Shown: in pieces, positions 7,372 to 38,562 of the stretch
How positions within the stretch are numbered: the first letter of the stretch is position 1
Layout of the letters: the number at the start of each line of letters is the position of its first letter
From: an uncultured Nitrospiraceae bacterium
Lineage (GTDB): Bacteria > Nitrospirota > Thermodesulfovibrionia > Thermodesulfovibrionales > Dissulfurispiraceae
NCBI GenBank assembly: GCA_963727805.1
Contig: CAVSHF010000003.1
Span: 768,001 to 832,000, forward strand
DNA: 64,000 nt
Reading direction: 5' to 3'
Position numbers and translations under genes: made by a program
The notes under the pieces: generated by a model
Told to the model about the DNA's origin: nothing
Databases searched by the model: none
The model's input: only the letters and a program-made list of their open reading frames with translations

Positions 7372-7481
7372 GCCTAACACGTAGCCTCGGAAATAAGAGT
7401 TTCTTTCAGAAAAAACATTTTTGGCGAAATGGCCGGGGTATTGATTGTCAGGATAATATTTCCAGGATAAGAGCGTTAGTC
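7372..7481 (+). repeat. Possible solitary attC-like site
   Basis: GCCTAAC ... CCTCGGAAATA / TATTTCCAGG (one extra base) ... GTTAGTC. Confidence 0.4.
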
Positions 7482-7735
7482 TATCGGGTATAAACATTGT
7501 GCAATGAGCTGTATCTGCATACTGTGGACTTTAAGCAGTAGAAATTTGTAAGGTTGAATGGAGCTTTGCGGCTGTAAAAGCACGTTAACGCTTCACAGAC
7601 ATAAAGAAAATGTCTCAGAGAGCTTTTATTGTTATCATGAAGAAAGGTTGGAGAATCGGAATACATATAGCGAATACAAGGCCGACGACCTAAGTCCAGT
7701 GCCGGAAGATTAATGGAAGAATATTTTCAAAAAAC

Positions 7736-8590
7736 ATGAAGACTGGATTAAGATTAGGGTTGGCAATATTGTGCTTATACGCGGTGTTTTTATCCCTTAG
7801 TAGCGGGAATGCTAATGCGGAAGATGGTGAAGTCCAGACCTCCGATCCCTGTTCAGCCGCAAACCCGTCTGCATTGTTTTATCTTTTGGATCGTCCAACC
7901 TTTTCAGACAGTGCCTGCTCTGTCCCATTTAGGCATATAGTTTTAGAATTAGGCTTGATTCGAGCAAATCTAAGAGGCGAGGGGAGCGGTAAGGCTGACA
8001 GTTACCCACAGGCCGAAGTGAGATTCGGACTTCCAGGCCGGAATGAGTTTAAAATACTTGCTCCCAACTACACGAGCCAGAGGTCGGAGACCCGACAGGA
8101 GGCATCCTCCGGCCTTTCTGCTGCCGGCATCGGGTTCAAACACGAGTTGGGATATGCCGGCAAATGGCTTGGCTCAGTGGAAGCCGTTCTGACCCTACCC
8201 TCTGGCAATGATGTTTTTGGGAGCCGAGGGTTAGGCACTACGATAAATGGGATAGTAGCATATTCACTTAGTGCTCATGTTGGATTGTCTCTCCAGCTTG
8301 GCATAAGCTCTTTGACTGACTCAGTCTCGGCTGGAGGCGGACGCTTCACGAGTTTTAACCAGTTTTTTGCGGCTACATGGAATCCCATCGAGCGGCTACA
8401 GTTATACGGCGAGGTCTATGGCCAAACGAAAACAGCGCGAAGCGAGGGAGCCGGCTACAACTTCGATGGTGGCCTCCAGTACCTTGTTACTCGCTGCTTA
8501 GTGGCTGATCTCGAAACGGGTGTGCGACTAACCGGCAATCTTGGAGGCTTCACCCATTACTACGGGGTGGGCGTTGGAATTCTTTTTTAA
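7736..8590 (+). CDS. Outer-membrane beta-barrel 'transporter' family protein
   Basis: Signal peptide, DRPTFSDSACSVP motif, alternating beta strands, C-terminal Phe. Confidence 0.7.
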   Translation: MKTGLRLGLAILCLYAVFLSLSSGNANAEDGEVQTSDPCSAANPSALFYLLDRPTFSDSACSVPFRHIVLELGLIRANLRGEGSGKADSYPQAEVRFGLPGRNEFKILAPNYTSQRSETRQEASSGLSAAGIGFKHELGYAGKWLGSVEAVLTLPSGNDVFGSRGLGTTINGIVAYSLSAHVGLSLQLGISSLTDSVSAGGGRFTSFNQFFAATWNPIERLQLYGEVYGQTKTARSEGAGYNFDGGLQYLVTRCLVADLETGVRLTGNLGGFTHYYGVGVGILF

Positions 8591-8640
8591 GTCCGAATAA
8601 AGACTTACCAGGCGACTTAGAAATCTATAGAGAATCCCGA

Positions 8641-9000
8641 ATGATTGCACGCCTTCGCGCCTATTCAGTATTAGTCGATGGGGAAAAGGTCCGCTCAGTA
8701 AAAGATGGTGCCACGGCAATAATTCCTCTCGCAGTGGGTTCACACAGTGTTTTAAATAAGATTGACTGGAAGAAAAGCAACACAATAACAATAAATACCG
8801 AAATTGAAAAAACCACAAAACTGAATATTGGCTATAAGAAACTTACAGGATGGAAGCTGTATGCGTTATCGGGAGCATGGATAATCACAGCTCTTATCGG
8901 CGCAACTATTGGAATTGGAGCACTTATTGGTATCGGCGTAGTCGGTTTCATGTTTAATCGTGTTGGCAGATTATATTTATATCAAGAACAAGAAACATAG
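8641..9000 (+). CDS. Hypothetical membrane protein
   Basis: 119-aa ORF with C-terminal hydrophobic segment. Confidence 0.55.
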   Translation: MIARLRAYSVLVDGEKVRSVKDGATAIIPLAVGSHSVLNKIDWKKSNTITINTEIEKTTKLNIGYKKLTGWKLYALSGAWIITALIGATIGIGALIGIGVVGFMFNRVGRLYLYQEQET

Positions 9001-9206
9001 TAGATTACAATCAAGGAATCGGCGGGAAACTTCCCCTTGATCGACAGCACCTGTCTCGATAGCTGGAAGAAACCTTGGATAATGAGCGGTTTCTCTGCGG
9101 CGATGACTTTAGGAGTAGAAACAATCGCCCAACAGAAGATATCCTGAATAATAGTTCTGATGTCGGTCTAACTTGATTGTAATTCGACGCGCATTATAAT
9201 ATCAGT

Positions 9207-9413
9207 ATGATCAGAAATAAGGATATCGCATTACAAGTTTTCTTTTTTGTCCTCGGGATGATGCTTGTGGTCTATGGCTGGCGTTCTTTTTTCAAGGGCC
9301 TGCTAGATATCGAACACAACTGGGTGCGCCTCGCCTTAGGTTTTTTCGCAGTGGGCTTGGGTCTTTTTATTTTTTATCTGCTCTTTCTGAGGAAATCAAA
9401 AAGAACCAAATAG
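9207..9413 (+). CDS. Small two-TM hypothetical protein
   Basis: Two hydrophobic helices and a basic tail. Confidence 0.55.
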   Translation: MIRNKDIALQVFFFVLGMMLVVYGWRSFFKGLLDIEHNWVRLALGFFAVGLGLFIFYLLFLRKSKRTK

Positions 9414-9649
9414 AAATCTTGTGGAGTTGCTGCAGTTTTAAGAACATGGCAATCAGATACCCTGTCCCTGGTCTGGACATGAAAGGTTTTCTCTCCCCTC
9501 GATGAACACCGGTAAAATAAAACGGCTTCACCGCGTCGGGGCAATCGCAATGATAACTAGGACACATTAGCCGCGGAACCCTGCGCTATCCGACACCAAA
9601 CTTGACGTAAGGGCAGTTCGTAGCCCTTGTTGGTCCTCGCATGTCTTGC

Positions 9650-10858
9650 TTACTCTCCAATCACCTGCCCGAACGGAATCCAGGTTTTGCCGTTGAACTT
9701 GATCAAAAACAACTCTTTGATTGGTTGATAATCGGTCGGACTTGTCGTTATTCTGATTCCGGGACGGAGCATCCCGAGCTCCAGATCTAGACTTGCAGCC
9801 TGCTTAATCACGTTCGCGCGGGTCAGATTGTCACCGCACTGCTTCAGCACTTCAACCAGCGCCTGCGCACGTTCGTAGCCAGCCACGTTGTTTTGATCTC
9901 TAATACTTGCCTGAGGATTGTATTTGTTCATCCAGTCGAGAAACTCGCGCACTGCTGGGTCTTGGCGTGCTTGCATATGCGTCCAACCCTTAGAGCGTGC
10001 GTTCGAGATTATTCCAACGGCTTTATCGAGGCCAGCGGGATCTAGGAAAGCAGCAATCGAGAGGGATGCGTTGGGAATGAATTGCTGTGGATGCCAGCCG
10101 ATGTCGTAGGCTATGCGAATCGCTTGGGTAGCAAACTTCCCCCATGCCAGGTTAATAAAAATATCGGCGCCAGAACTTTTTAGCGCCACGATATGCGAAG
10201 TGAGGTCTGCATCAGTATACTCGTAGGGAACTTCCTTTATGATCATCGTTGACGCCATATCCCCTAGACCATCGTGTATACCGGCAAGATACTCTTTGCC
10301 CGCATTGTTGTCAGCGTAAAGTACCGCTATTTTCGTATCAAGTTTGTTTTGAAGTATATACTTCGCGTAGGACAGTCCCTCCGTCCGGTATGTAGCGAAG
10401 AACCCCATTGTCCACGGGAAATGCGTCGGATCGTCCAAAGCCGCTGAGCTACTCTGGAGGAAAAGTTGCGGCACTTTCTTGTCATTTAGGTATATGCGGA
10501 TCGCCAGGTTGCTCTCAGTACCAAAGGAACTGAAGATCAGCAAAACCTCTTCCTGTTCGACTAGCTTATGCGCCAGTTCGATAGACTTGTTAACATTAGA
10601 GCCATCATCAACGGTTACAAAGTTGATCTTGCGACCATTTATTCCGCCACGATCGTTGATCATCTGAAAGTATGCAGCCTCTGCACGCCCTACAGCTCCG
10701 TATTCTGAGAACAGACCCGTGTAAGGACTGATATTGCCGATTTTGATCTCGGCGTCCGTGGCACCTGTGTCGTATTTCTTCTGAGCCACTGCAGGTGTAG
10801 CTACGAGCGCGATTGCGAACAGCGTCGCCGCAATATTGCGAAGTATGGAAAAGTTCAT
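9650..10858 (-). CDS. Branched-chain amino acid-type ABC transporter substrate-binding protein (orphan)
   Basis: Signal peptide; YDTGATDAEIKIG..PYTG, INDRGGINGRKI motifs; GGAGG RBS before 10858. Confidence 0.9.
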   Translation of the reverse strand: MNFSILRNIAATLFAIALVATPAVAQKKYDTGATDAEIKIGNISPYTGLFSEYGAVGRAEAAYFQMINDRGGINGRKINFVTVDDGSNVNKSIELAHKLVEQEEVLLIFSSFGTESNLAIRIYLNDKKVPQLFLQSSSAALDDPTHFPWTMGFFATYRTEGLSYAKYILQNKLDTKIAVLYADNNAGKEYLAGIHDGLGDMASTMIIKEVPYEYTDADLTSHIVALKSSGADIFINLAWGKFATQAIRIAYDIGWHPQQFIPNASLSIAAFLDPAGLDKAVGIISNARSKGWTHMQARQDPAVREFLDWMNKYNPQASIRDQNNVAGYERAQALVEVLKQCGDNLTRANVIKQAASLDLELGMLRPGIRITTSPTDYQPIKELFLIKFNGKTWIPFGQVIGE

Positions 10859-11711
10859 GTTCACTGCCTCCATTCCGTAAAGACCCGCCTATGGTTGGCT
10901 TAGCCTATAGTTATCTATTGCTGAGATATTTTATAGACTGTATCGACATATAGAAATCAAGTCAAGCAATATACAAAATAGTAAATTCAATTCATGCCTC
11001 CATGAATCCATAGAAAAGATGCCACCTCTCCTCAATACAAATTGAAGCGACAATTGCCGAATGAAACAAATGGCCGGAGAGCATCGCCCGTGGCACTAAC
11101 TTTTGGGTGGTAAACCACATTTCTCAGCTATACAGATTGAGGCATGTTACGAGGAGTCAATCGACAAAGCCTCCATGAAAGTTTTTTTTGGTAATCACCA
11201 AATTCCTAATACTGGTAAAATCGATTGGTTTCAGGTGGTACCAATATTCTGAACCGACGCGACCCATACTTGATTTCCGGAAGAAAGCTTGTGTAATAAG
11301 CCATGTCCTTGCGGCAATGACTATAAGTTGTTATCAGTGGTACGTTCTAGATGTCACCAAGAAGAACCACCTTGGAGCTTGACAATCTACACAGCAGTAC
11401 GAGTTAAGAATCTGATTATGATAATTACGTTCGGAATACAACATCCCTGGTAAGATGCTGAGGTATGTATAGTAAAGTGCAGGCATTTTTCGGTAGGCTC
11501 TCGCAGAATTGATTTCCGGTAGAAAGCTCGTATCATTCGCTGCTTCCCCACAGCGATGACTTTAATTAGGAAGCTAGTCACCAGTCTCAATATGGCTGCC
11601 TCGAAGATTTGACATGCAATCGATCCTGTCATTCTTCTGCCGTGAGTGAAGGGTTCTCTCGGAAACAAGCGGCGATGCAAAGCCGACCCAGTAACGCTTT
11701 CGTGCGGAAGC

Positions 11712-11768
11712 CACCAACGCCAAGGGTCAGGCGCGCTGTAAAGCGTCGCCTGCACCCTCTTGTTAGTT
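11712..11768 (-). repeat. Integron attC site (57 bp) downstream of katG
   Basis: Minus strand AACTAAC-AAGA-GGGTGCAGGCGA-CGCTTTACAGCG-CGCCTGACCC-TTGGC-GTTGGTG: AAC/GTT ends and paired L boxes with extra-helical bases. Confidence 0.75.
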
Positions 11769-11820
11769 GATCGTTTTATCGCCGCCCAGTCAGAAGCTGT
11801 CGAAGACGTTTATGCTACGA

Positions 11821-14070
<2,250 letters not shown>

Positions 14071-14221
14071 TTACGCTGCCCATCTAGCTAACAAGTTATT
14101 AGCTGGTTAACACGAGTGCTCGTCGCTGGATATAAGAATACCAGCATCGGTGGTAGGTTCGCGGTCCTCGTCCTTCATGGTAATAGCTCCTTCTTTGCCA
14201 GGGATGATTCTCCTTTCATCT

Positions 14222-14240
14222 TATTTTGAATTGTTTCTAA
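14222..14240. promoter_or_regulatory. Candidate Fur/PerR operator upstream of katG
   Basis: 19-bp AT-rich imperfect palindrome (minus strand ATTAGAAACAATTCAAAAT) between the Fur-family gene and katG. Confidence 0.4.
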
Positions 14241-14337
14241 TGGTGCGGATATTGATTATTATCCGCGGTCGTTTATAGTTTCTTGAAAAAGGCCTTTTGT
14301 CTTTGATAGGAAGATTGTTTTAAATATCAAAATTTAA

Positions 14338-14787
14338 TTAACCCTTATTCGGCCTGCAGTTTTTGCAGTAGCCATAATACTCGTAGCGCATGCGGTTCAT
14401 GACAAAACCAGTTTTCTGTTCCACCTGCTCTTTTAGCATGGGAATCGGCTCATCATAATTTACAATCCTCCCACACCCAAGACAGATCAAGTCGAGATGC
14501 TCTCTGACATCGCTCTCGTAGCGGTTTTCTCTATCATAAAACTCAAGCTCTTTTATTGCTCCTTCGCGCTTAAAAAGATTAAGCGTAAAGTATACAGTTG
14601 AAAGACTCACAGAAGGGACCTCCTGCCTCACCTTCTCAAAGATAGCACGTGCGCTAGAATGACTTCGGTCATTAGAGAGAACCTCAACAATAGCTAGCCG
14701 CTGACGTGTAAGCTTTAGATTGTTCTTCCTAAGCTTATCAATCAGCTTTCTTTTAATATCCTCTGATGTCGGAGTAATCTTCTTCAT
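14338..14787 (-). CDS. Fur-family repressor (PerR-like)
   Basis: LTRQRLAI, SLSTVY, HLDLICLGCG and GYCKNC zinc motifs; adjacent to katG. Confidence 0.92.
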   Translation of the reverse strand: MKKITPTSEDIKRKLIDKLRKNNLKLTRQRLAIVEVLSNDRSHSSARAIFEKVRQEVPSVSLSTVYFTLNLFKREGAIKELEFYDRENRYESDVREHLDLICLGCGRIVNYDEPIPMLKEQVEQKTGFVMNRMRYEYYGYCKNCRPNKG

Positions 14788-15191
14788 GATTTAATCCGGA
14801 ATAATTCTTGTTTAGAGTGTATTAATAAAGCTATAGCGTGTCAAGCCGCGCTGGAGAGCAAAAGCAACCTTACTTTCTTTGAAAATGAGAAGTGAATCCA
14901 TGTTTTTTAAATGCATTTACAATACATGTAAACAAAAATACTAACTACCGCATCTTAATGAGGCCAAACCGGTCTTACTCAGTAATCACAAAGTCGTCCT
15001 TGACACACTAGAGACTTTAAGCAAGCTCTAAAATATTGTGCTATAGTTGCAGAAAGATAAAAAAAGGGAATTTGCGGCGTTAAGTGTATGCCAAAACAGG
15101 GACAGCTGGAGCAGACAGAAAAACAGAATTACACTGATACAGACACGGACAGATACAGGCCGAAATTAAGCAAGGAAAGGAGGGAAACCTT

Positions 15192-15701
15192 ATGGGATAT
15201 AAAAATATGATGTTAGCTGAGTCCCGAAATGGCAATACTGAAGCAGTTAAGCAGCTTCTTGAAGCGGGCACTGATGTGAATGAAAAGAATAATCTTGGAG
15301 ATACCCCATTGATGTGGGCAGCCCGTTATGGTCACACTGAAACAGTAAAGCTCCTTCTTGAATCAAGCGCTGATGTTAATGCTAATAATAATTATGGCTG
15401 GACTGCTCTAATGTGGGCAGCCCGTTATGGCCACACTGAAACAGTAAAGTTCCTTCTCGAAAAAGGCGCAGATGTAAATAGAGAGAACCGTCATGGCAAC
15501 ACAGCACTACTGTTTGCGGCTTATGAAGGCAGTACTGAGATGGTGAAGCTACTTCTTGAAGCTGGCGCTGATGTTAACGCAACGAACGGAGAAGACGCCA
15601 GTGTATTGAGCTATGCCCATGAACTCAAGGACGAAGCCAAGCGAGAGGCGATCATAGAGATGTGTAGGGAATATAATGCTGTCGAATTGAACGGTGGTTA
15701 A
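15192..15701 (+). CDS. Ankyrin-repeat protein
   Basis: Repeated G-x-T-(P/A)-LMWAA..GHTETVKLLLE.GADVN units; GGAGG RBS. Confidence 0.93.
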   Translation: MGYKNMMLAESRNGNTEAVKQLLEAGTDVNEKNNLGDTPLMWAARYGHTETVKLLLESSADVNANNNYGWTALMWAARYGHTETVKFLLEKGADVNRENRHGNTALLFAAYEGSTEMVKLLLEAGADVNATNGEDASVLSYAHELKDEAKREAIIEMCREYNAVELNGG

Positions 15702-16057
15702 ACACTTCCCGGCGAGCTTAACCACTGATGATTTCCCATCGTACTCACCGGAATTCTCATGATGTTCTCCGGTATTGATTTTAGCACTAGGAGCCGAGAA
15801 TACGCTTCTGATTGCGAATTTCGGACCATGCCGAACACTCATTTCGGAGCAAAGCGAACACCTGTTTCGGTCTGAACGCGAACACTGATATCGGAGTCAT
15901 GGCGAACACTTTTGGGTAATCCCGATATAGGTGTTCGCCATGAGACCGAAATAGAAGTGTTCAGACTACCTGACGAAATAAACATAGCCGAAGCTGGATA
16001 AATTCCACACAAATACGCCATTGTCCTTCTTCTACGAACTTTGACGAAGGAGAAGCG

Positions 16058-17596
16058 ATGGCTAATAGGGGTATATCCATGCGGATGGTTAGAGAAATCT
16101 TAAGACTGTATTATGGGCTGCATCTTGGCAAACGACAAATAAGCCGGTCCTGCAAAGTGTCGCCGAGCACAGTAGTAGATTATGTCCAGAAGGCCCAGGA
16201 TAAGGGCATTTCATGGCCACTTCCTGAGGACCTTGATGACGCAAAGCTTGAAGCTATGCTCAGTGAACGCAGTAGTCGGAAGACAGCCCTTCGTCCGCTG
16301 CCCCCAATGGAGGAGATTCATCGCGAGCTTCGCAAAAAGGGCGTCACCCTTCAACTGTTGTGGCTCGAATATAAAGAACGGCATCCTGAGGGGTATCAGT
16401 TTACGCAGTTCTGCGAGCATTATCACCGCTGGGAGAAAAACCTTGAGATAAGTTTACGGCAGGAGCATCGCGCCGGCGAGAAGATGTTCATCGACTTTGC
16501 CGGCAAAGGGATACCCATCGTCGACTCTTTCACAGGCGAGAGCACCGAAGCTCAGATCTTTGTGGCAGTCCTTGGAGCAAGCAACTATACCTATGTCGAA
16601 GCGCTCCCATCGCAGAGTCTCCCCTTCTGGATCAAGGCTCACATCAATGCTTTTGAATACTTTCACGGTGTGAGCCAAATCCTTGTCCCGGACAATATCC
16701 GAGCAGCCGTATCGAAGTCCTGCCGATACGAACCCGACCTCAACCCCGTATATCTGAGTCTGGCGCAGCACTACGGTACCGCCATTATCCCTGCACGTCC
16801 GTATAAACCAAAAGATAAGGCAAAGGTGGAAGCCGGAGTATTGCTGGTCACCCGATGGATCATTGCGGCATTGAGGAATCACACATTCTTCAGTATCGAG
16901 GAGCTTAATGCCAGCATCAGGGAACTTCTGGAACGCTTGAATACCCGGAAGTTCAGGAAACTAAACAGTACCCGCAGAGAACTCTTTGAGACCCTTGAGA
17001 GGCCGTATCTTAAGCCTTTGCCCGTTGAGCGGTATCGATACATCGACTTCAAGCGGCCAACGGTTAACATCGATTACCACGTCGACGTAGCGGATCATTA
17101 CTACAGCGTTCCTTACCAGCTTCGTGGCAAAAAGTTAGAAGCCTTCCTCACTGTCGATACGGTGGAGATCTTCCACAATAACAATCGCATTGTGACTCAT
17201 CAACGCAGCTTCAAAGCAAGAGGATATACGACCATTGCTGAGCACATGCCGAAAGCGCATCAGAAGCATCTTGAGTGGACTCCATCGAGGATCATCCACT
17301 GGGCGGAGCAGACCGGCGCTGCCACAGCAAAGCTTGTCGAGACCATCCTGACGACGCGACCGCATCCGGAGCAGGGATTCAAATCCTGCATAGGCCTGTT
17401 GAGACTCGGCAAGAAGTACTCGCCGGAGAGACTGGAAGCAGCCTCTATGCGGGCGGTCCATATCAAGGCTTATTCATACAAGAGCGTCAAGTCGATGCTT
17501 GAAACCGGATTCGACCGTACTCCGATCACCGAACAAAAGGAGGTGACCCCGCCCTTATATCATGACAATATCCGCGGTAAAGAGTACTTCAGTTGA
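16058..17596 (+). CDS. istA: IS21-family DDE transposase
   Basis: GEKMFIDFAG, VPDN, KPKDKAKVEAGV, HDNIRG motifs. Confidence 0.96.
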   Translation: MANRGISMRMVREILRLYYGLHLGKRQISRSCKVSPSTVVDYVQKAQDKGISWPLPEDLDDAKLEAMLSERSSRKTALRPLPPMEEIHRELRKKGVTLQLLWLEYKERHPEGYQFTQFCEHYHRWEKNLEISLRQEHRAGEKMFIDFAGKGIPIVDSFTGESTEAQIFVAVLGASNYTYVEALPSQSLPFWIKAHINAFEYFHGVSQILVPDNIRAAVSKSCRYEPDLNPVYLSLAQHYGTAIIPARPYKPKDKAKVEAGVLLVTRWIIAALRNHTFFSIEELNASIRELLERLNTRKFRKLNSTRRELFETLERPYLKPLPVERYRYIDFKRPTVNIDYHVDVADHYYSVPYQLRGKKLEAFLTVDTVEIFHNNNRIVTHQRSFKARGYTTIAEHMPKAHQKHLEWTPSRIIHWAEQTGAATAKLVETILTTRPHPEQGFKSCIGLLRLGKKYSPERLEAASMRAVHIKAYSYKSVKSMLETGFDRTPITEQKEVTPPLYHDNIRGKEYFS

Positions 17597-17689
17597 AAAT
17601 CGGCTCTATGGGACAGCCAATAATCGACTAAGAGGCATCGACCAAGGGGTAAGTATACCCCACAAACATACTATAAGGAGGAGACAGCG

Positions 17690-18439
17690 TTGAATCACAC
17701 TATCGAAAAACTCTCACAGATGAAGCTCTACACAATGGCAACGGCAGTGAAGGAGCAGCTTGAAAATCCTTCCCTTAGCAAACTGAGCTTTGAGGACAGA
17801 TTCTCCATGATCATAGACCGGGAGTGGACTTCCAGGGAAGACAGAAAACTCACCAGAAGACTCAAGTCGGCACGCCTGAGGACCAATGCCACTATCGAAG
17901 ATATCGACTATCAGCACCCCAGGGGATTGGACAAGTCGGTCGTCAGATCCCTGGCTTCTTGTCAGTGGATCTCTTCTCACCATAACGTGATCATCACCGG
18001 GCCGACCGGCATCGGCAAGACTTACCTTGCTGAGGCATTTGCAAACAAAGCCTGCCGAGAAGGATTCACTGCTGTACAATACCGGTCAACAAGACTCTTT
18101 GAGGAACTGAGGATCGCAAAAGCTGACGGCAGTTTCTTCAAGGTCCTCGGAAGACTTGCAAAGACGGACCTCCTCGTCATTGACGACTGGGCCGTGGACC
18201 CACTGACCGAAGATGAGCGCGGCCACTTCCTGGAAGTCATGGAAGACAGATACGGACTGAAGGCGACAATCATTACCAGCCAGTATCCCGTCGCCAAATG
18301 GCATGATCGCATCGGAGAGCCTACAAAAGCCGACGCCATACTCGACAGGATCGTCCATAACTCACACAAGATAGCTTTGAAGGGAGAATCGATGAGAAAA
18401 ACTAAGACAAACTTGACGAAAGGCGAACGCTCTTCGTAA
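17690..18439 (+). CDS. istB: IS21-family helper ATPase
   Basis: GPTGIGKT Walker A, LLVIDDW, ADAILDRIVH, GESMR. Confidence 0.96.
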   Translation: MNHTIEKLSQMKLYTMATAVKEQLENPSLSKLSFEDRFSMIIDREWTSREDRKLTRRLKSARLRTNATIEDIDYQHPRGLDKSVVRSLASCQWISSHHNVIITGPTGIGKTYLAEAFANKACREGFTAVQYRSTRLFEELRIAKADGSFFKVLGRLAKTDLLVIDDWAVDPLTEDERGHFLEVMEDRYGLKATIITSQYPVAKWHDRIGEPTKADAILDRIVHNSHKIALKGESMRKTKTNLTKGERSS

Positions 18440-22668: not shown

Positions 22669-22772
22669 TTTTCATCTCTCTGCAACTAAAGCACAATTAT
22701 TAAGTGCTTTCTACTTATAATCGCGAGTCCGCTCGCTACGCTGCAGATGCGATGTTACGACTGGTAATGCTC
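22669..22772 (-). repeat. Cassette-boundary repeat (core ACTT 22713-22716)
   Basis: TTCATCTCTCTGCAACTAAAGCA..CTACTTATAATC-N29-ATGTTAC-N4-GGTAATGCTC. Confidence 0.85.
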
Positions 22773-25275: not shown

Positions 25276-25353
25276 TATAGCACACCTTCATGAACAGAAC
25301 TAATAGTAACTACTTATACTCAACACCCTGGGAGCACAGCGCATTACTCGATG
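25273..25353 (-). repeat. Cassette-boundary repeat interrupted by group II intron (core ACTT 25312-25315; resumes at 25992)
   Basis: CACTATAGCA..TAACTACTTATACTC-N29-ATG|intron|TTTCTTCCGGAA restores motif and spacing exactly. Confidence 0.85.
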
Positions 25354-25991
25354 GTCGAGTAGGCCGGTGGAATCGCACCACCAGCCCCTCACAGATTCCG
25401 TACGTGAACCTCTCGATTCATACGGCTCGTGTCAATCATCAAGTTGAGTCTTTGCAGTCTCAACCATACACATTGAGCGATAGTTCCTCCTGGTCACCCA
25501 GTTGACTGGTACTCTTTGTGGATTGACCCATCCCCTTCCCTCCACGGCTTATTATCACCGCTTCATCGGTACTATTGGACGGTCCGACCCCTTCACCTGC
25601 ATCGATACTTTCCCCCTTCGTTTGCACTTATAGGGTTTTCTCTTAGCATCAGATGAAGAGTTCCCGCGTTCCACACAGGAGCCTAGATCAGCTTCATGCC
25701 GCCTCTATGCCGGACGCCGTTCAGGCAGTAAACAGGTATCTCCTGAACTAATCCTGATGCAAAGTAAGAACATCAGTTTTGACGTCGTCCTTTTCCTTTC
25801 GACACCTCATCAGCGGTTCGCTTACGCTCATCTCTCTGATCCATCCCTGACACGATCTAGTCGTGCCTTTTCCTTTAACGCTCACCACCGGAGCCTTTCG
25901 ACTACAGCAGCTTAAGGTGGGTTGAAGCCTGCTCCTGCAAGCCGGCTTCGAGGGGCCAACCCTCATCTTCCTGTGCAGCCTCGTGGCGCAC
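25354..25991 (-). ncRNA. ORF-less group II intron (638 nt, IIB-like)
   Basis: 5' GTGCG; domain V GAGCCGTATGAATCGAGAGGTTCACGTACGGAATC; domain VI ending CCTACTCGAC; no RT ORF. Confidence 0.92.
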
Positions 25992-26149
25992 TTTCTTCCG
26001 GAATTCATTAAAGACACTTGGTTCATGCACTACCAGCAACCTTGTTTTCGAATTTCCAAAAAGTATGGTGAGTGTCGCTTGTGCGTCTTTAAGCGTGATA
26101 ACAAGATTCCTCAGATAATTGATAGTCAGTATACACGTTTACAAATGCT

Positions 26150-26527: not shown

Positions 26528-26999
26528 AACCCTGTCATCTCCGTATTCATTTACTGCTGATTCATTACTATAAAGATATTGTCTCCTAATCGGCTTTGGT
26601 TATCAAGGAGAATTTACAATTAATTGGGGAAAAGTCTTACTTTCTTTATGTTCGGTGATGTGTGTCACGAATGACACCCACAAAATTACCCTTGGGAGGA
26701 GACAACCCTGAGCCGCTGTTTGCCTGAGAGAAAAGTATCAGAAGTTCAAATGCGTATTTTTCGGCGTTTAAGGACACCCATTCCGGATCATCGCAGCACC
26801 ATATCGGACAGTTCATGAGGGCCCCAACCAATCACGTCTAATTTCCTTAGAAGCGAATCAGCTTGTGGAGATTCTCTCTGTGGGGTTCACTTGATACCCA
26901 GCGCTTCATCCTTCTTGCCAAGAATGTTCATTACGAACGTAACTATCGAAATTAGATTCTCAATAACTACTCCTACGCATCAAATATGGTATAACCAAG

Positions 27000-27152
27000 T
27001 TATGGACGGTTGTTAACCGCTCATAAAGGGGCAGGAGGACGTTAACTACAGGGTCATTGAATCCTTTTATCAGTCAGTCCCCTGTCTCCCAAAAGCCATG
27101 ATAAGTTGATAGGGCTAAGAGCTCTTGTAAACATGGAGATATGGTTGGGAGG
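27000..27152 (+). ncRNA. Putative bridge RNA of IS110 copy 1
   Basis: 5' hairpin, then two stems each with a large internal loop and apical hairpin; loop segments GTTAACTAC and TTATCAGT match the target, AGTTGAT and GGAG match the donor. Confidence 0.75.
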
Positions 27153-27189
27153 CATCCTGCCTAAGATCCTATGTGGGAGGTGCTTGGAA

Positions 27190-28386
27190 ATGAGCAAAGC
27201 ATTCATTGGCATCGATGTGTCAAAAGAGCATTCGGCTGCCCAAGGCATCGATAGTGACGAAAAGAAGCTTTTTTACTTAAGGTTTTCGATGGACTCAGCA
27301 GGGTTTGCAGAGCTTCGGACTGCGATTAAAAGATGCGCTGTGAACCTGGATGATATTGCTGTTGCGATGGAGTCCACCGGCTGTTATCATATCAACCTCT
27401 TTTCCTTCCTATGTGCGGAGGGACTTCGTTGTGTGGTAGTAAATCCGCTTCTAATATCCAAGTTTGTTCAGGGGTCATTGAGAAAGACCAAGACAGATAA
27501 GAAGGATGCGATGACCATAGCGCAGTTTCTTCTGAACAATGAAAAGAAGCTTTACTCCGTGACCGAGTCCCAGGATGCACAGGATCTCAGGGATCTGGCC
27601 AGAGAACGGGAGTCTCAATCATGGATGATTGCAACACTGAAGAATGACCTCAAAAGGTTGCTGCAGAGCACTTTCCCTGAGTTTGAGACACTCCGCAAGA
27701 ATATTTACACTAAGACGATGCTGAACTTTCTTACGCAGTATCCTTCGGCCAGATTAATACGGGAGGCAAAGAGAAAAGATATCGACAAAGCGCTCATCTG
27801 TCCCGGGGAGAAGCGAAAGAGAGTACAGATTAGTGCTGACGATCTTATCAATGCGGCAAAGCGTTCGGTGGGCTCAGCTGGTATAGCAAAGGAGCTTATT
27901 GTCTCTGAGAAAGCAACAACGATCCTATACCTTGAGGAAAAGTGTGAGAAGATTACCGAGGAATTGGTGGATGCGTGTGAGGCAACACAGATCGAAGATC
28001 TTGAGATAATGAAGACTCTCGATGGAGTGAAAGACATTACTGGATCGACCTTTTTAGCAGAGATGGGAGAGCTATCCAATTACAAGTCATATAAGAGTTT
28101 GATAGCTTTTATGGGGCTTGATCCATCTACCAATCAGTCAGGGCAGCATGTGGGGCCAAGCAAAATATCGAAACGAGGGAATCGTCATCTGAGGCGAGTC
28201 ATCCATATAATGACAATGTGTTCAATAAAGTCTGACAATATATTCAGACAATACTATCTTAGAAGGATAGCCGAAGGATTGCCTAAGATGAAGGCATTAA
28301 TGGCGACATCTCACAAACTGATCAGAGTGATCTTCTCTATGCTTTCACATAGAACGACTTTTAAAAAGGAGGTGGCTGCTGCATAG
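27190..28386 (+). CDS. IS110-family recombinase/transposase
   Basis: GIDVSK, MESTGCYH, KTKTDKKDA, GLDPSTNQSG, SKRGNRHLR; GGAGG RBS before 27190. Confidence 0.96.
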   Translation: MSKAFIGIDVSKEHSAAQGIDSDEKKLFYLRFSMDSAGFAELRTAIKRCAVNLDDIAVAMESTGCYHINLFSFLCAEGLRCVVVNPLLISKFVQGSLRKTKTDKKDAMTIAQFLLNNEKKLYSVTESQDAQDLRDLARERESQSWMIATLKNDLKRLLQSTFPEFETLRKNIYTKTMLNFLTQYPSARLIREAKRKDIDKALICPGEKRKRVQISADDLINAAKRSVGSAGIAKELIVSEKATTILYLEEKCEKITEELVDACEATQIEDLEIMKTLDGVKDITGSTFLAEMGELSNYKSYKSLIAFMGLDPSTNQSGQHVGPSKISKRGNRHLRRVIHIMTMCSIKSDNIFRQYYLRRIAEGLPKMKALMATSHKLIRVIFSMLSHRTTFKKEVAAA

Positions 28387-28389
28387 TTG

Positions 28390-28449
28390 ACTTATAATCG
28401 TGAGTGCGCCCAAAACGTTCAGGATGCTATGTTACGAATGGTAATGTTT
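28390..28449 (-). repeat. Right arm of boundary repeat abutting IS110 copy 1
   Basis: ACTTATAATC-N29-ATGTTAC-N4-GGTAATG; overlaps the stop codon of 28432..28902. Confidence 0.85.
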
Positions 28450-28902
28450 AAAGTGGAGCTTCGCCTCTTCAGGGGTATAATAAGCACGAAGTATTCCGGA
28501 AATCACAAGGTCCCCCAATAATTCCACGGGCACTGCTTGTCCGACAGAAACGCACTCTCTATGAAAATTGTCACCTGCAAGAAACTGAATTTCGCCATGC
28601 CTTTCAATTTGAATCGCCCCGATCTTGTGAACAATACGTCCCTCTGGCAACACTTCTTTGAGAATGGGAGCAATCGTTTGCGGTGTCAGCGGTATTACAA
28701 TAAATCTACTGTCTTCATTCCATTCGCGTGTGAAGGGCGGTAGGACATTTTCAATGACGCCTGGAATAGTTCCGAAGTGCATCTCGCTCATTGCTTCTAT
28801 ATCGCCTTCAAGTGCAATGTGCGCATCTCCAGCAAGCATGCGCATAAGAGCGGTTAAGAGTGCTGGCTTATCTCTTGGATCGAGGATATAAGCTTTCTTC
28901 AT
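28432..28902 (-). CDS. Hypothetical protein (single-gene cassette-like unit)
   Basis: 156-aa ORF bounded by repeat cores at 28390 and 28954. Confidence 0.7.
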   Translation of the reverse strand: MKKAYILDPRDKPALLTALMRMLAGDAHIALEGDIEAMSEMHFGTIPGVIENVLPPFTREWNEDSRFIVIPLTPQTIAPILKEVLPEGRIVHKIGAIQIERHGEIQFLAGDNFHRECVSVGQAVPVELLGDLVISGILRAYYTPEEAKLHFKHYHS

Positions 28903-34133: not shown

Positions 34134-34340
34134 TCAGAATGCCTCACTGCCAAAAGCATATCACACTGCAATGAAGAATGCACCCCCTTTACTTATGGCT
34201 TTGGCTAATACGCAAACCCGACCACTGCCACTTGATACCCAGCGCTTCATCCTTCTTGCCAAGAATGTTCATTACGAACGTAACTATCGAAATTAGATTC
34301 TCAATAACTACTCCTACGCATCAAATATGGTATAACCAAG

Positions 34341-34493
34341 TTATGGACGGTTGTTAACCGCTCATAAAGGGGCAGGAGGACGTTAACTACAGGGTCATTG
34401 AATCCTTTTATCAGTCAGTCCCCTGTCTCCCAAAAGCCATGATAAGTTGATAGGGCTAAGAGCTCTTGTAAACATGGAGATATGGTTGGGAGG
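34341..34493 (+). ncRNA. Putative bridge RNA of IS110 copy 2
   Basis: Same sequence as 27000-27152. Confidence 0.75.
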
Positions 34494-34530
34494 CATCCTG
34501 CCTAAGATCCTATGTGGGAGGTGCTTGGAA

Positions 34531-35727
34531 ATGAGCAAAGCATTCATTGGCATCGATGTGTCAAAAGAGCATTCGGCTGCCCAAGGCATCGATAGTGACG
34601 AAAAGAAGCTTTTTTACTTAAGGTTTTCGATGGACTCAGCAGGGTTTGCAGAGCTTCGGACTGCGATTAAAAGATGCGCTGTGAACCTGGATGATATTGC
34701 TGTTGCGATGGAGTCCACCGGCTGTTATCATATCAACCTCTTTTCCTTCCTATGTGCGGAGGGACTTCGTTGTGTGGTAGTAAATCCGCTTCTAATATCC
34801 AAGTTTGTTCAGGGGTCATTGAGAAAGACCAAGACAGATAAGAAGGATGCGATGACCATAGCGCAGTTTCTTCTGAACAATGAAAAGAAGCTTTACTCCG
34901 TGACCGAGTCCCAGGATGCACAGGATCTCAGGGATCTGGCCAGAGAACGGGAGTCTCAATCATGGATGATTGCAACACTGAAGAATGACCTCAAAAGGTT
35001 GCTGCAGAGCACTTTCCCTGAGTTTGAGACACTCCGCAAGAATATTTACACTAAGACGATGCTGAACTTTCTTACGCAGTATCCTTCGGCCAGATTAATA
35101 CGGGAGGCAAAGAGAAAAGATATCGACAAAGCGCTCATCTGTCCCGGGGAGAAGCGAAAGAGAGTACAGATTAGTGCTGACGATCTTATCAATGCGGCAA
35201 AGCGTTCGGTGGGCTCAGCTGGTATAGCAAAGGAGCTTATTGTCTCTGAGAAAGCAACAACGATCCTATACCTTGAGGAAAAGTGTGAGAAGATTACCGA
35301 GGAATTGGTGGATGCGTGTGAGGCAACACGGATCGAAGATCTTGAGATAATGAAGACTCTCGATGGAGTGAAAGACATTACTGGATCGACCTTTTTAGCA
35401 GAGATGGGAGAGCTATCCAATTACAAGTCATATAAGAGTTTGATAGCTTTTATGGGGCTTGATCCATCTACCAATCAGTCAGGGCAGCATGTGGGGCCAA
35501 GCAAAATATCGAAACGAGGGAATCGTCATCTGAGGCGAGTCATCCATATAATGACAATGTGTTCAATAAAGTCTGACAATATATTCAGACAATACTATCT
35601 TAGAAGGATAGCCGAAGGATTGCCTAAGATGAAGGCATTAATGGCGACATCTCACAAACTGATCAGAGTGATCTTCTCTATGCTTTCACATAGAACGACT
35701 TTTAAAAAGGAGGTGGCTGCTGCATAG
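34531..35727 (+). CDS. IS110-family recombinase/transposase
   Basis: Same motifs as copy 1. Confidence 0.96.
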   Translation: MSKAFIGIDVSKEHSAAQGIDSDEKKLFYLRFSMDSAGFAELRTAIKRCAVNLDDIAVAMESTGCYHINLFSFLCAEGLRCVVVNPLLISKFVQGSLRKTKTDKKDAMTIAQFLLNNEKKLYSVTESQDAQDLRDLARERESQSWMIATLKNDLKRLLQSTFPEFETLRKNIYTKTMLNFLTQYPSARLIREAKRKDIDKALICPGEKRKRVQISADDLINAAKRSVGSAGIAKELIVSEKATTILYLEEKCEKITEELVDACEATRIEDLEIMKTLDGVKDITGSTFLAEMGELSNYKSYKSLIAFMGLDPSTNQSGQHVGPSKISKRGNRHLRRVIHIMTMCSIKSDNIFRQYYLRRIAEGLPKMKALMATSHKLIRVIFSMLSHRTTFKKEVAAA

Positions 35728-35730
35728 TTG

Positions 35731-35790
35731 ACTTATAATCCACATCTAAACACATAATAATTATTCCGATGTTTACAACCGGAAGTCAAG
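35731..35790 (-). repeat. Right arm of boundary repeat abutting IS110 copy 2
   Basis: ACTTATAATC-N28-ATGTTTAC-N4-GGAAGTCAA; GGAA at the same offset as in other copies. Confidence 0.7.
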
Positions 35791-35948: not shown

Positions 35949-36701
35949 TTACTCGGAGTGGTCGCGATGCGTCAAGTTTTGCTTCTTTTTCCGCATCGAC
36001 TCTCCCTTCAGCGTGATCTTGTGCGCAGCGTGAATGATCCTATCGAGTATGGCATCGGCCAGCGTCGGTTCTCCGATCAACTCAAACCACTTTGAAACAG
36101 GATACTGGCTCGTTATTAGCGTTGATCTGAGTCCGTGCCGATCCTCTATGACTTCCAGGAAGTCCCTTCTCTCTGCCTCATTCATTGAAGATAAGCCCCA
36201 ATCGTCGATAACGAGAAGCTCTGTCTTGGCTATCTTGTTCAAGAGTTTCAGGTAACTGCCGTCTCCTCTCGCTATTGCGAGCTCCCTGAAGAGCCGTGGA
36301 TAGCGGTAGTAGATTGCCGTCATTCCTTCACGGCAGGCTTTTTGTGCAAATGCTTCAGCGAGGTAGCTCTTGCCAATGCCCGTAGGCCCCGTGATGATAA
36401 CGTTGTGGTGGTTCTTGATCCACTCGCAGTTTGCCAAAGAGAGAATAAGAGACTTGTCGAGACCCCTTGAGTGCCTGTAGTCAACGTCCTCAATAGTCGC
36501 TTGCCTTTTTAGTTTCGCCGCCTTGAGCCTTATGGCGAGTTTTCTGTTTTCCCGGTACAGCCACTCTCTTTCTACGATCATGGCGAAGCGGTCATCAAAG
36601 GACAGCTCCGTCATGGAGGGCTGCTCACGTTGCTCATTGAAGCCCGTAACCATTCCGCTCAACTTCATATGGTAGAGCTTCTCTACTGTCTGGTTGTTCA
36701 T
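35949..36701 (-). CDS. istB: IS21-family helper ATPase
   Basis: GPTGIGKS, LLVIDDWG, ADAILDRI, GESMR. Confidence 0.96.
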   Translation of the reverse strand: MNNQTVEKLYHMKLSGMVTGFNEQREQPSMTELSFDDRFAMIVEREWLYRENRKLAIRLKAAKLKRQATIEDVDYRHSRGLDKSLILSLANCEWIKNHHNVIITGPTGIGKSYLAEAFAQKACREGMTAIYYRYPRLFRELAIARGDGSYLKLLNKIAKTELLVIDDWGLSSMNEAERRDFLEVIEDRHGLRSTLITSQYPVSKWFELIGEPTLADAILDRIIHAAHKITLKGESMRKKKQNLTHRDHSE

Positions 36702-36718
36702 AAACCTCCTTGTGTTGT

Positions 36719-38263
36719 TCAGTTGTAGTAATCGCTGCCCCTGATGTTGTCGTGATAGACGATAGCTGTCACCTCCTTGTCTTCGGTTATCGGTAGCTGG
36801 TCAATGCCATGCTCAAGGATTGAGTTAACGCTTCTGTATGAGAACGACCTGATAAGGAGTGCCCTTTGAGCTGCGGCCTCAAGCCGCTCGGCAGAGTATC
36901 GTTTGCCAAGTCTCATGATTCCGAGGCATGAGCGGTATCCCTGTTCGGGATGCGGCCTGGCGAGCATGATCTGTTCAAGCAGTTCTGCAGTATGCGGGCC
37001 TACTGTACTTGCAGCCCAATGGATGATCCTCGATGGCGACCACTCAAGATAACGCTGATGGGACTTGGGTCTATGCTCTGCGATCGTCGTGAAGCCTCCC
37101 TTCTGGAAGCTTCTTTGATGCAGGGCTACTCGCCTGGATTTGAATAGAATCTCTACTGTATTCATAGTCATCCTGACGTCAACCTGCTTTCTAACAAGTT
37201 GATAAGGAACGCTATAGCAGTGACCTTCGACCTCGATGTGATGGTCGATGTTGACGGTGGCTTTCTTCCACTGGGCATATTGGTATCGTTCCAGTGGAAG
37301 CGGTCTCAATGCCGGCTTGTCGATCGCCTCAAACATCTCGCGTCTGCATCCGGGCAGCTTTTTGAAGGGACGATTGTTGAGTCGCTCAAGGAGCTCTCGG
37401 ATTGCTTCATTCAACTCGCGCAGGCTGAAGAAGGTTCGGTTTCTAAGGGCCGCAAGTATCCATCGAGTAACAACGAGCACGGCTGATTCGCCCTTGGCTT
37501 TGTCCTTTGGCTTTGCTGCTCTGGCAGGGATGATGACTGTGCCATAATGGGCGGAGAACTCTTGGTATGTGGCGTTCAGTTCCGGCTCGTATCGACAGGC
37601 CCTAGTCACTGCAGCCTTGAGATTGTCAGGCACCATAATCATAGGGACCCCACCTATAAACTCCAGGGCGTTTATATTGCAGCTGATCCAGGACGGGATG
37701 TCTTGACGCAGCACCGCTTCGGCATAAGTATAGTTGCTGGCACCAAGTACTGAGACGAAGATCTGGGCTTCGTAAACTTCCGTCGTCAGGGGATTGATGA
37801 TGGGGATGGTTTTGCCCGCGAAGTCCAGGAAGAGCTTTTCGCCTGCACGATGAACCTGTCGCATGCTGACTTCAACGGTCTCGGCCCAGCGCCGATAATG
37901 CTCGCAGAACTGAGTATATTGATACCCGTCGGGGTACTTCTCTTTGTACTCCTGCCATAGGAGATAGAGCGTTACGCCCTTCTTCCTCAGTTCCCTGTGG
38001 AGTTCATCCATTGCCGGAAGTGGCCGGACTGTATCCCGGGCAACAGATTCCTTGCCGAACAGCAATTGCTCAAGTCCGGTGTCGTCGAGATCAGAGGGCA
38101 GCGGCCAGGTGATCGCCGCCTGTTCCGCCTTCTCAAGATACTTTACGACGGTGCTGTGCGAAACCTTCACACAGCGGGCAATCTGCCGCTTGGGTAGCTT
38201 CAGGTCGAAGTGTAGTCTTAATATCTCTCTCGTCTTTTGCATGGTTATGGTCGGGGTGGACAT
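36719..38263 (-). CDS. istA: IS21-family DDE transposase
   Basis: GEKLFLDFAG, VPDNLK, KPKDKAKGE, HDNIRG; GGAGG RBS before 38263. Confidence 0.96.
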   Translation of the reverse strand: MSTPTITMQKTREILRLHFDLKLPKRQIARCVKVSHSTVVKYLEKAEQAAITWPLPSDLDDTGLEQLLFGKESVARDTVRPLPAMDELHRELRKKGVTLYLLWQEYKEKYPDGYQYTQFCEHYRRWAETVEVSMRQVHRAGEKLFLDFAGKTIPIINPLTTEVYEAQIFVSVLGASNYTYAEAVLRQDIPSWISCNINALEFIGGVPMIMVPDNLKAAVTRACRYEPELNATYQEFSAHYGTVIIPARAAKPKDKAKGESAVLVVTRWILAALRNRTFFSLRELNEAIRELLERLNNRPFKKLPGCRREMFEAIDKPALRPLPLERYQYAQWKKATVNIDHHIEVEGHCYSVPYQLVRKQVDVRMTMNTVEILFKSRRVALHQRSFQKGGFTTIAEHRPKSHQRYLEWSPSRIIHWAASTVGPHTAELLEQIMLARPHPEQGYRSCLGIMRLGKRYSAERLEAAAQRALLIRSFSYRSVNSILEHGIDQLPITEDKEVTAIVYHDNIRGSDYYN

Positions 38264-38562
38264 TGTGCCTCCTTGATGAATGGTCAAGAAGAAACAATGA
38301 CTTATAACCCCCTGCTATATCCAGCTAAGACGACGCTCTCGTCAGCTCCTATATGACCTCTCGTTTCGGACTACGACCAAAAGTGGTCGCGCTCAGTCCG
38401 AAATGGGTGGTCGCGATACTCCGAAACAGGTGGTCGCGATGGACCGAAATGACTGGTCGCGATGCTCCGAAATACGCATGCCCCCCAGATAAGACTGTCA
38501 TGGCTATATAGGCCGACTTGCTAATACAAATATCAAGTGTGCTTCTCTTTACACTGTCTCAT

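Follow-up and report, generated by a model that had tools for sequence, protein, structure and literature searches.

An IS110-group insertion sequence carrying a candidate bridge RNA whose target guides match and covary with a repeat of its host

The window analysed here is a 64,000-nucleotide stretch of DNA from an uncultured Nitrospiraceae bacterium, and its positions 26972-28389 were confirmed as an intact IS110-group insertion sequence (IS). When 26850-28450 was compared by blastn with the genome from which it comes (5 contigs, 3.89 Mb), eight full-length copies of the IS were found. Copies 1 and 2 are near-identical, and the other six are 88-91% identical to copy 1. The features of the locus are listed below; all are given on the plus strand.

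25300-25381, plus: copy of the host repeat free of this IS, with box TAACTACTTATACTC and, splitting its 3' part, a minus-strand group II intron that has no ORF
26888-26968, plus: host repeat unit, left arm (last bases AATAACT); flank rather than IS, and identical upstream of copy 2 at 34229-34309
26969-26971, plus: core ACT, left copy; the two putative target guides overlap on its AC
26972-28389, plus: IS copy 1, 1418 bp between two ACT cores (blastn against own genome, alignment of copies)
26987-26995, plus: extended -10-like box TGGTATAAC of the left end (sequence)
27002-27024, plus: 5' stem-loop of the predicted bridge RNA (fold; four pairs of helix 2 are changed on both sides across homologues)
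27028-27040, plus: predicted stem of the target-binding module, 5' strand, GGGGCAGG-A-GGAC (fold, covariation)
27041-27049, plus: candidate left target guide GTTAACTAC, corresponding to the top strand of left flank and core; TAACTAC matches 26963-26970
27050-27066, plus: predicted apical hairpin of the target-binding module (fold, RNAalifold)
27067-27074, plus: candidate right target guide TTATCAGT; its reverse complement ACTGATAA agrees with the flank ACTTATAA (28390-28397) at 7/8 positions
27077-27088, plus: predicted stem of the target-binding module, 3' strand, GTCC-CCTGTCTC; its boundary with the next stem is ambiguous
27089-27148, plus: predicted donor-binding module, with a stem of 27089-27100 and 27140-27148 and a hairpin at 27112-27124
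27190-28386, plus: recombinase gene, 398 aa (Pfam, alignment to the IS621 structure)
28387-28392, plus: TTGACT, formed by the last three bases of the IS (TTG) and the right core ACT (28390-28392) (sequence)
28390-28451, plus: host repeat, right-hand part, with 5' box ACTTATAATC (nhmmer match C3:796390-796451; 29.2 bits as flank alone)
34313-35730, plus: IS copy 2, with cores at 34310-34312 and 35731-35733 and the same guides as copy 1

We placed the ends of the element at 26972 and 28389 because the six diverged copies align only within 26967 to 28392-28410, where the last bases are look-alike flank. The junctions read CT-ACT-CCTACRCATCAAATATGG on the left and TATAGTTG-ACT-flank on the right. 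ACT is present at both junctions in 8/8 copies, with no other duplication of the target. An 84-86 nt left flank common to copies 1 and 2 was considered as part of the IS and rejected, as the six diverged copies begin at 26967-26972. The non-coding left end spans 218 nt (26972-27189), while the right end extends 3 nt past the stop codon, and copy 1 has neither terminal nor subterminal inverted repeats (18 inverted pairs were found, none of them joining the two ends). According to PMC11187229, the IS110 type has its non-coding region upstream of the gene, and the IS1111 group is distinguished by a downstream non-coding region together with subterminal inverted repeats, neither of which is present here. 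By these criteria, the long left end, the 3-nt right end and the absence of inverted repeats assign the element to the IS110 type and not to the IS1111 type.

The recombinase matches DEDD_Tnp_IS110 (PF01548; 1.4e-37) and Transposase_20 (PF02371; 2.5e-22), and aligns with the IS621 transposase (PDB 8wt6) at E = 1.2e-14, the motifs GID, E-TG, KTD--DA and SK-G coinciding. Residues D9, E61, D103, D106 and S327 align with the catalytic motifs of IS621, which points to a DEDD (RuvC-like) domain at the N terminus and, at the C terminus, a Tnp domain bearing the catalytic serine.

Copy 2 differs from copy 1 by one base in 1512 nt, common flank included. With the repeat HMM, its right flank scores 7.3 bits and so belongs only weakly to the repeat family. 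Truncation of this flank by the adjoining IS21 element was considered and rejected: both repeat boxes are kept, with a weak HMM score. The window contains two such IS21-family elements, at 16058-18439 (plus strand) and 35949-38287 (minus strand), each with an IstA-like rve/Mu-transposase C-terminal protein and an IstB ATPase; three tandem end repeats of 23 nt, at 38398-38472, belong to the second.

The IS lies in a repeat of its host. The box in which it sits is the 5' box of a repeat of about 75 nt, with the consensus (T/A)nCTAC-TTAWARTC, and a 3' box, TTTCnnCCGGAAATC, follows after a variable spacer. With nhmmer, 77 copies were found in the genome at E<=1 and 43 at E<=1e-3, clustered in a few arrays and mostly in one orientation. 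Those in the window at 22703, 24066, 24707, 25300, 28390 and 28943 have between them one or two small ORFs on the minus strand, whose families are unrelated (RDD, TPR, PilZ and unknowns). The 3' box overlaps ORF stop codons; that of the repeat at 28390-28451 overlaps the stop codon of the minus-strand ORF 28432-28902. The repeat bounds co-oriented gene modules. Five further repeats, in the opposite orientation, lie at 7481-15783 of the window among ordinary-looking genes (a periplasmic binding protein, a KatG-type peroxidase, Fur and an ankyrin protein), so the repeat is not confined to arrays of small ORFs.

A repeat that separates small genes recalls the attC sites of integrons, whose core motifs are RYYYAAC and GTTRRRY. 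The boxes here read CTACTTAWARTC and TTTCnnCCGGAAATC and do not form the ends of a palindromic hairpin of that kind. RNAalifold finds no consensus structure on either strand of the repeat, and the mean folding energy is -4.6 kcal/mol vs -3.8 for shuffles (33 copies). A search of the genome for an integron integrase (TIGR02249) reached 86.5 bits at best against a cut-off of 265, the matches being ordinary tyrosine recombinases. We rejected an attC/integron reading of the repeat, given the lack of IntI in the genome and of a conserved fold in the repeat. The original prediction had described the IS as programmed against cassette repeats. The guides do spell the core of the occupied repeat, as detailed below, but the repeat is not attC and the array is not an integron.

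Other mobile elements are found in this repeat as well. A group II intron lacking an ORF lies at 25346-25993 on the minus strand (25354-25964 by the Rfam match; RF01999, 109.8 bits; RF00029, 45.4 bits). Its insertion point is constant, in the distal part of the unit and ahead of the 3' box. Further copies of the intron are found beside IS copies 3 and 8 (C3:2247400 and C5:400660), and others interrupt repeats at C5:34735 and C5:62743. A 2.56-kb IS91-family element is present in eight copies of at least 99.7% identity, for example at C5:23888-26449 (L027) and C3:847726-850288, and encodes a Y2_Tnp and Zn_Tnp_IS91 transposase as well as a 299-aa tyrosine recombinase. It ends exactly at CTAC-TAC-TTAAAATC, and on contig C5 one end abuts the CTAC-TT box of the first repeat in the large array. 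Three unrelated mobile elements use one module-boundary repeat in a non-integron array.

These observations bear on whether the IS produced the repeat boxes, or left them as footprints, instead of using them as a target that existed before it. Both the box and the IS lineage have expanded in this genome: the 12-mer box CTACTTAWARTC occurs 21 times (20 forward and 1 reverse, with 6 for a reversed-pattern control), as against 0-4 times per genome in 40 relatives, which is near the control, many of those assemblies being fragmented. Among the genomes searched, this 12-mer is expanded in this one only, though such counts neither tell repeat and IS apart nor establish that the 12-mer is missing from fragmented assemblies. 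The repeat units, however, are about 75 nt long, their 3' box has no relation to the IS, there are more of them than of the IS, and unrelated elements (the group II intron and the IS91-family element) use the same units. We therefore consider it very unlikely that the boxes were produced by the IS.

The non-coding left end of the IS is predicted to fold into a 5' stem-loop followed by two modules with internal loops. In the first, the loop strands 27041-27049 and 27067-27076 surround the small hairpin 27050-27066; in the second, the loops 27101-27111 and 27126-27139 surround the hairpin 27112-27124. A 5' hairpin had been placed at 27000-27026 beforehand and was recovered at 27002-27024, and the stem and internal loop with apical hairpin lie at the positions first proposed, with the fold kept in homologues. 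Taken singly, the sequence folds with a z-score of only -2.0. In an alignment of seven sequences from the same genome, 99.6% of cells pair and one pair is changed on both sides (GGAC/GUCC to GAAC/GUUC), but this alignment is no test of the fold because the copies are too alike.

Homologues in other genomes provide greater divergence. A homologous recombinase at E<=1e-60 is found in 10/61 genomes, own genome included, the full-length matches being 47-66% identical. A covariance model, R1, was built from the left end and run on 10 loci of the 9 other genomes, two of the loci coming from one genome. R1 matched directly upstream of the recombinase gene in loci of 8/9 other genomes; seven of the matches are complete (E from 6e-32 to 1.7e-15), and the eighth runs off the end of its contig (E 1e-6). 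Locus L010, a partial gene at a contig end, had no R1 match. In the resulting 14-sequence alignment, which was fitted to R1 and so leans towards the structure, 91.1% of cells pair, compared with 30-57% after shifting the partners by 1-3 columns. Eleven pairs (25 cells) are changed on both sides, and 0/500 shuffles attain the pairing and covariation values; this is the covariation analysis that had been proposed as a check, and its outcome favours the fold. The change from GGAC/GUCC to GAAC/GUUC occurs in 6/13 distinct sequences. RNAalifold, applied to the alignment by itself, predicts 33 pairs, 10 of them with compensatory changes, and differs in how it places the base of the two modules, as both GGCAGG and GGGAGG are possible partners of CCUGYCUCCC. 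The modelled RNA fold with its two internal-loop modules thus appears conserved, with an ambiguous boundary between the basal stems.

The two target guides proposed within the first internal loop overlap on the AC of the core. TAACTAC of the empty site, claimed to equal the left guide, is identical to the guide's 3' end, and the 7/8 complementarity claimed for the right guide holds as well (ACTGATAA against ACTTATAA). The left guide thus corresponds to the top strand, the right guide is complementary to it, and both include the core. The right guide and the flank also covary, both in copies 3-8 and among homologues, as the following comparisons of its reverse complement with the right flank show.

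Copy 7: guide reverse complement ACTTATTA, flank ACTTATTA
Copy 3: guide reverse complement ACTTAGTA, flank ACTTATTA
Copy 5: guide reverse complement ACTGAAAA, flank ACTGAAAA
Copies 4, 6 and 8: guide reverse complement ACTGAAAA, flank ACTGAAAG
L012 (other genome): guide reverse complement ACTCCTTT, equal to its own flank
L016 (other genome): guide reverse complement ACTACAAG, equal to its own flank
L014 (other genome): CTCCTCT agrees with its own flank
L015 and L017 (other genomes): guide reverse complement ACAGAAAC, flanks ACAGGAAC and ACAGAAAT

To score this relation we used 13 elements, namely the copies of this genome (copy 2 merged with copy 1) and six elements of other genomes; L018 (broken ORF, core not AC) and L013 (RNA cut by the contig end) were left out of the count. 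The right guide agrees with the flank at 69/78 non-core positions, and the left guide at 57/91 positions, which is only moderate. The sum of 126 compares with 74.8 +/- 7.9 for permuted flanks and was attained in 0/20000 permutations, figures that overstate the significance since the elements and copies are related and not independent. In the alignment of seven copies, 9/17 guide columns are variable vs 20/144 elsewhere (Fisher p = 5e-4). The match is imperfect at the site of copies 1 and 2, where 10/13 non-core positions agree and 3 do not, and the left guide of copy 1 agrees better with the flank of copy 4 (6/7) than with its own (5/7).

The original prediction had made its case dependent on guides that vary with their targets, and such covariation was found across the 13 elements. 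Together with the conserved structure and its compensatory changes, it supports the proposed reading of the left end as an IS621-type bridge RNA. The region upstream of the gene could also be a mere mRNA leader, its resemblance to the flanks being due to chance; it matches no Rfam family, either at gathering thresholds or at E<=10, and its single-sequence z-score is unremarkable. This explanation is already contradicted by the 13 elements, in which both guides covary with the flanks, and by a scaffold that is conserved at 47-66% protein identity while its loops vary, and we regard it as extremely improbable. It is very likely, judging from these sequence comparisons, that a bridge-RNA gene lies upstream of the recombinase, with target guides that match and covary with the insertion-site DNA, and that the IS inserts into the host repeat under RNA guidance.

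The eight copies fall into four guide variants, and the IS lineage appears from its sequences to have diversified into these variants following the box sub-types TTATAATC, TTATTATC, TGAAAGTC and TGAAAACC. With each of the four variants agreeing with its box sub-type, the eight copies offer a clean natural case of what looks like bridge-RNA retargeting, and relatives in other genomes seem to be set to other sites on the same RNA scaffold.

Contigs assembled from public sequencing runs are informative about such variation. No run holds half or more of the sampled words of the stretch; relatives occur in digester, bioreactor and soil metagenomes, with small shares in wetland metatranscriptome runs. 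The contigs of these relatives cover the IS only, starting at about 26954-26970 and stopping at 28396-28399, after which other flanks follow that keep the box letters. Several of them (runs X1 and X15; metagenome and metatranscriptome) break at 27042-27046 and continue with other left-guide letters. This pattern fits many insertion contexts and variable guides in nature, and suggests that many guide variants coexist in natural populations. Contigs from RNA libraries cover 27046-27256; being assembled, they demonstrate neither transcription nor its strand or ends, and such contigs could contain DNA. No joint of a circle or of an empty site was seen among the contigs, an absence that carries no weight in data of this kind, and neither do the parts of the stretch that lack cover.

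The second internal loop was predicted to match the donor junction, and it does. The left donor guide AGTTGA (27104-27109) is identical to bases of the right end, TAGTTGA, and CTCC in the left end is the complement of the right donor guide, GGAG (27135-27138), so that the loop agrees with both ends of the element; one base beside the core is unpaired on each side. In homologues, guide and end differ together, with GAAG alongside CTTC in L011 and GGGTGT alongside ACACC in L015 and L017, a covariation read by eye.

The ends may also form a promoter. TTGACT at the right end would be a -35-like hexamer separated by an 18-nt spacer from TGGTATAAC, and only in a circular junction. Homologues keep TGGTATAA/TGTTATAA at the -10-like box, and all of them have TAGTTGAC at the right end. 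A consensus promoter scan of the integrated copy flagged none, and the left-end -10 box ends in C. The putative arrangement, TTGACT, 18 nt and TATAAC, is predicted from sequence and is consistent with the circle-junction promoter of this family.

These features suggest the following route. By homology to IS621, the element would leave as a circle, whose junction TAGTTG-ACT-CCTAC would bring the -35-like TTGACT beside TGGTATAAC. The promoter so formed would drive transcription of an RNA of about 150 nt and of the recombinase. The circle junction would then be bound by the donor loop (AGUUGA and GGAG). Within the repeat's 5' box, the target loop (GUUAACUAC and UUAUCAGU) would bind the bottom strand at AATAACTAC and the top strand at ACTTATAA. 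Strand exchange by the DEDD/Ser recombinase would follow at the common AC(T) core, with the outcome of one fixed orientation and no duplication except the core.

When the flanks of all insertions in the genome were collected, as had been recommended, each of the eight copies was found between CTAC and T, in one orientation. With the repeat HMM, the right flanks of copies 1, 3 and 7 score 29, 19 and 18 bits and that of copy 2 a weak 7 bits, while those of copies 4, 5, 6 and 8 (4/8 copies) give no score. The latter flanks carry a look-alike box, CTAC-TGAAAGTC, and a distal box of the GATTWCC type, and parts of the flank of copy 4 are found again at other places in the genome. In our judgement, the boxes holding copies 4, 5, 6 and 8 are diverged relatives of the repeat.

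Guide pairing as we delimited it does not by itself single out the repeat. A scan of the genome for the predicted 15-nt targets found no perfect site for any guide set, and many of the sites with 2-3 mismatches lie outside repeats. For the target of copies 1 and 2, 45 genome sites have at most 3 mismatches in 13 positions; 5 are in repeats, whereas 40 are outside them and empty, so that pairing of this extent is insufficient alone to explain the repeat-type location of the copies. The IS-free repeat at 25306-25321, which had been called a near-perfect unoccupied target, is real and its box is intact, but it agrees at 9/13 non-core positions and the description was overstated.

Several explanations of the empty sites may be considered. 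Selection may remove insertions elsewhere, or the effective pairing may differ from the delimitation used, for instance by being longer. Targeting could also need a second determinant in the repeat, a feature of sequence or shape besides the guides. Such a determinant would account for the 40/45 equally good guide matches that lie unoccupied outside repeats, all eight copies are in units with a similar two-box layout, and a stem-loop gate is reported for ISPpu10 (bioRxiv 10.64898/2026.03.19.712850). The repeats, on the other hand, have no conserved fold by the RNAalifold and energy comparisons given above, and selection or a longer guide gives the same pattern. We hold a second determinant to be possible but rather doubtful.

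What the IS does in the array was left by the original prediction between a parasite and an enzyme that rearranges the repeats. The first of these is most likely: the IS parasitises the host repeat, as group II introns and the IS91-family element also do. The repeat is presumably an abundant, harmless site for it, and the convergence of mobile elements on a safe, abundant site is the pattern seen for this repeat. The second has no support, the donor loop being set to the IS's own ends, and we found no evidence of module shuffling by this IS.

In its fuller form, the rearranging role would make the recombinase and bridge RNA the machinery that moves or shuffles repeat-bounded modules, for example by recombining the junction with another box and taking the adjoining DNA with it. 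No IntI is present, and IS621 is reported to recombine substrates matching only half of the bridge RNA. The left flank that copies 1 and 2 have exactly in common (84-86 nt) begins right after CAC, which contains the AC core. Yet the donor loop matches the ends of the IS and not the repeat; 43-77 repeats stand against only 8 IS copies, with this IS occupying 1/43 repeats at E<=1e-3 and 3/77 at E<=1; the left-edge bases of the common block do not match the right donor guide; and a single duplicated block is an anecdote. Such machinery is decidedly unlikely.

The duplicated block deserves description in its own right. The duplicated units are 26886-28399 and 34227-35740, and other relatives of the left arm are only 88-93% alike; a 61-nt relative of 26888-26968 was found by blastn in the same genome at C3:74903-74963. 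The block starts after CAC in both places, and a short ORF, MNILGKKDEALGIK, is cut off at the same codon. The exact common flank implies that flank DNA was duplicated together with the IS at least once, apparently as one unit. One could suppose that the IS110 lineage recombines its junctions with other boxes that have an AC core and occasionally carries module DNA along, the duplication being one such event. We think this decidedly unlikely. If it were true, an RNA-guided recombinase would contribute to the shuffling of a non-integron module array, with guides evolving in place and tracking the sub-types of the boundary repeat. Parasitism of the repeat remains our preferred reading.

The bridge-RNA mechanism is already known, having been described in 2024, and the element is a clear new example of it. 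Like IS621 of E. coli (PMC11208160; PDB 8wt6), the element has a DEDD and Ser recombinase, a predicted RNA gene at the left end, ahead of the recombinase gene, with the order 5' hairpin, target loop and donor loop, and a left guide equal to the top strand with a right guide equal to its complement, both covering the core, as both target guides of IS621 include the core. A -35 box in the right end (here a -35-like sequence, by our reading) and a target that is an abundant host repeat are further likenesses. The protein, in contrast, is only distantly similar (E = 1e-14, in two stretches), with a longer linker and 398 aa vs a 328-aa chain, and the target here is a non-palindromic module-boundary repeat, while that of IS621 is REP.

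In ISPpu10 of Pseudomonas putida (bioRxiv 10.64898/2026.03.19.712850), too, IS110 insertions all lie in one conserved intergenic sequence, and guide pairing may not be the sole determinant; its target has a GC-rich stem-loop, unlike the repeat here, which has no conserved fold. The IS1111-attC group (ISKpn4 and ISPst6; PMC11187229) likewise consists of DEDD-transposase elements homing to repeats that separate cassettes, with insertion at one position and in one orientation. That group has its non-coding region downstream, subterminal inverted repeats and true attC targets, whereas here the RNA lies upstream, subterminal inverted repeats are absent and the target is not attC. With respect to IS621, two further differences concern the recombination itself: the core is AC(T) in place of CT, and the right guide pairs over 6-8 nt, compared with the 4-base right guide used in the IS621 analysis (PMC11208160). 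With this core and longer right guide, the element could be a further orthologue for bridge recombination.
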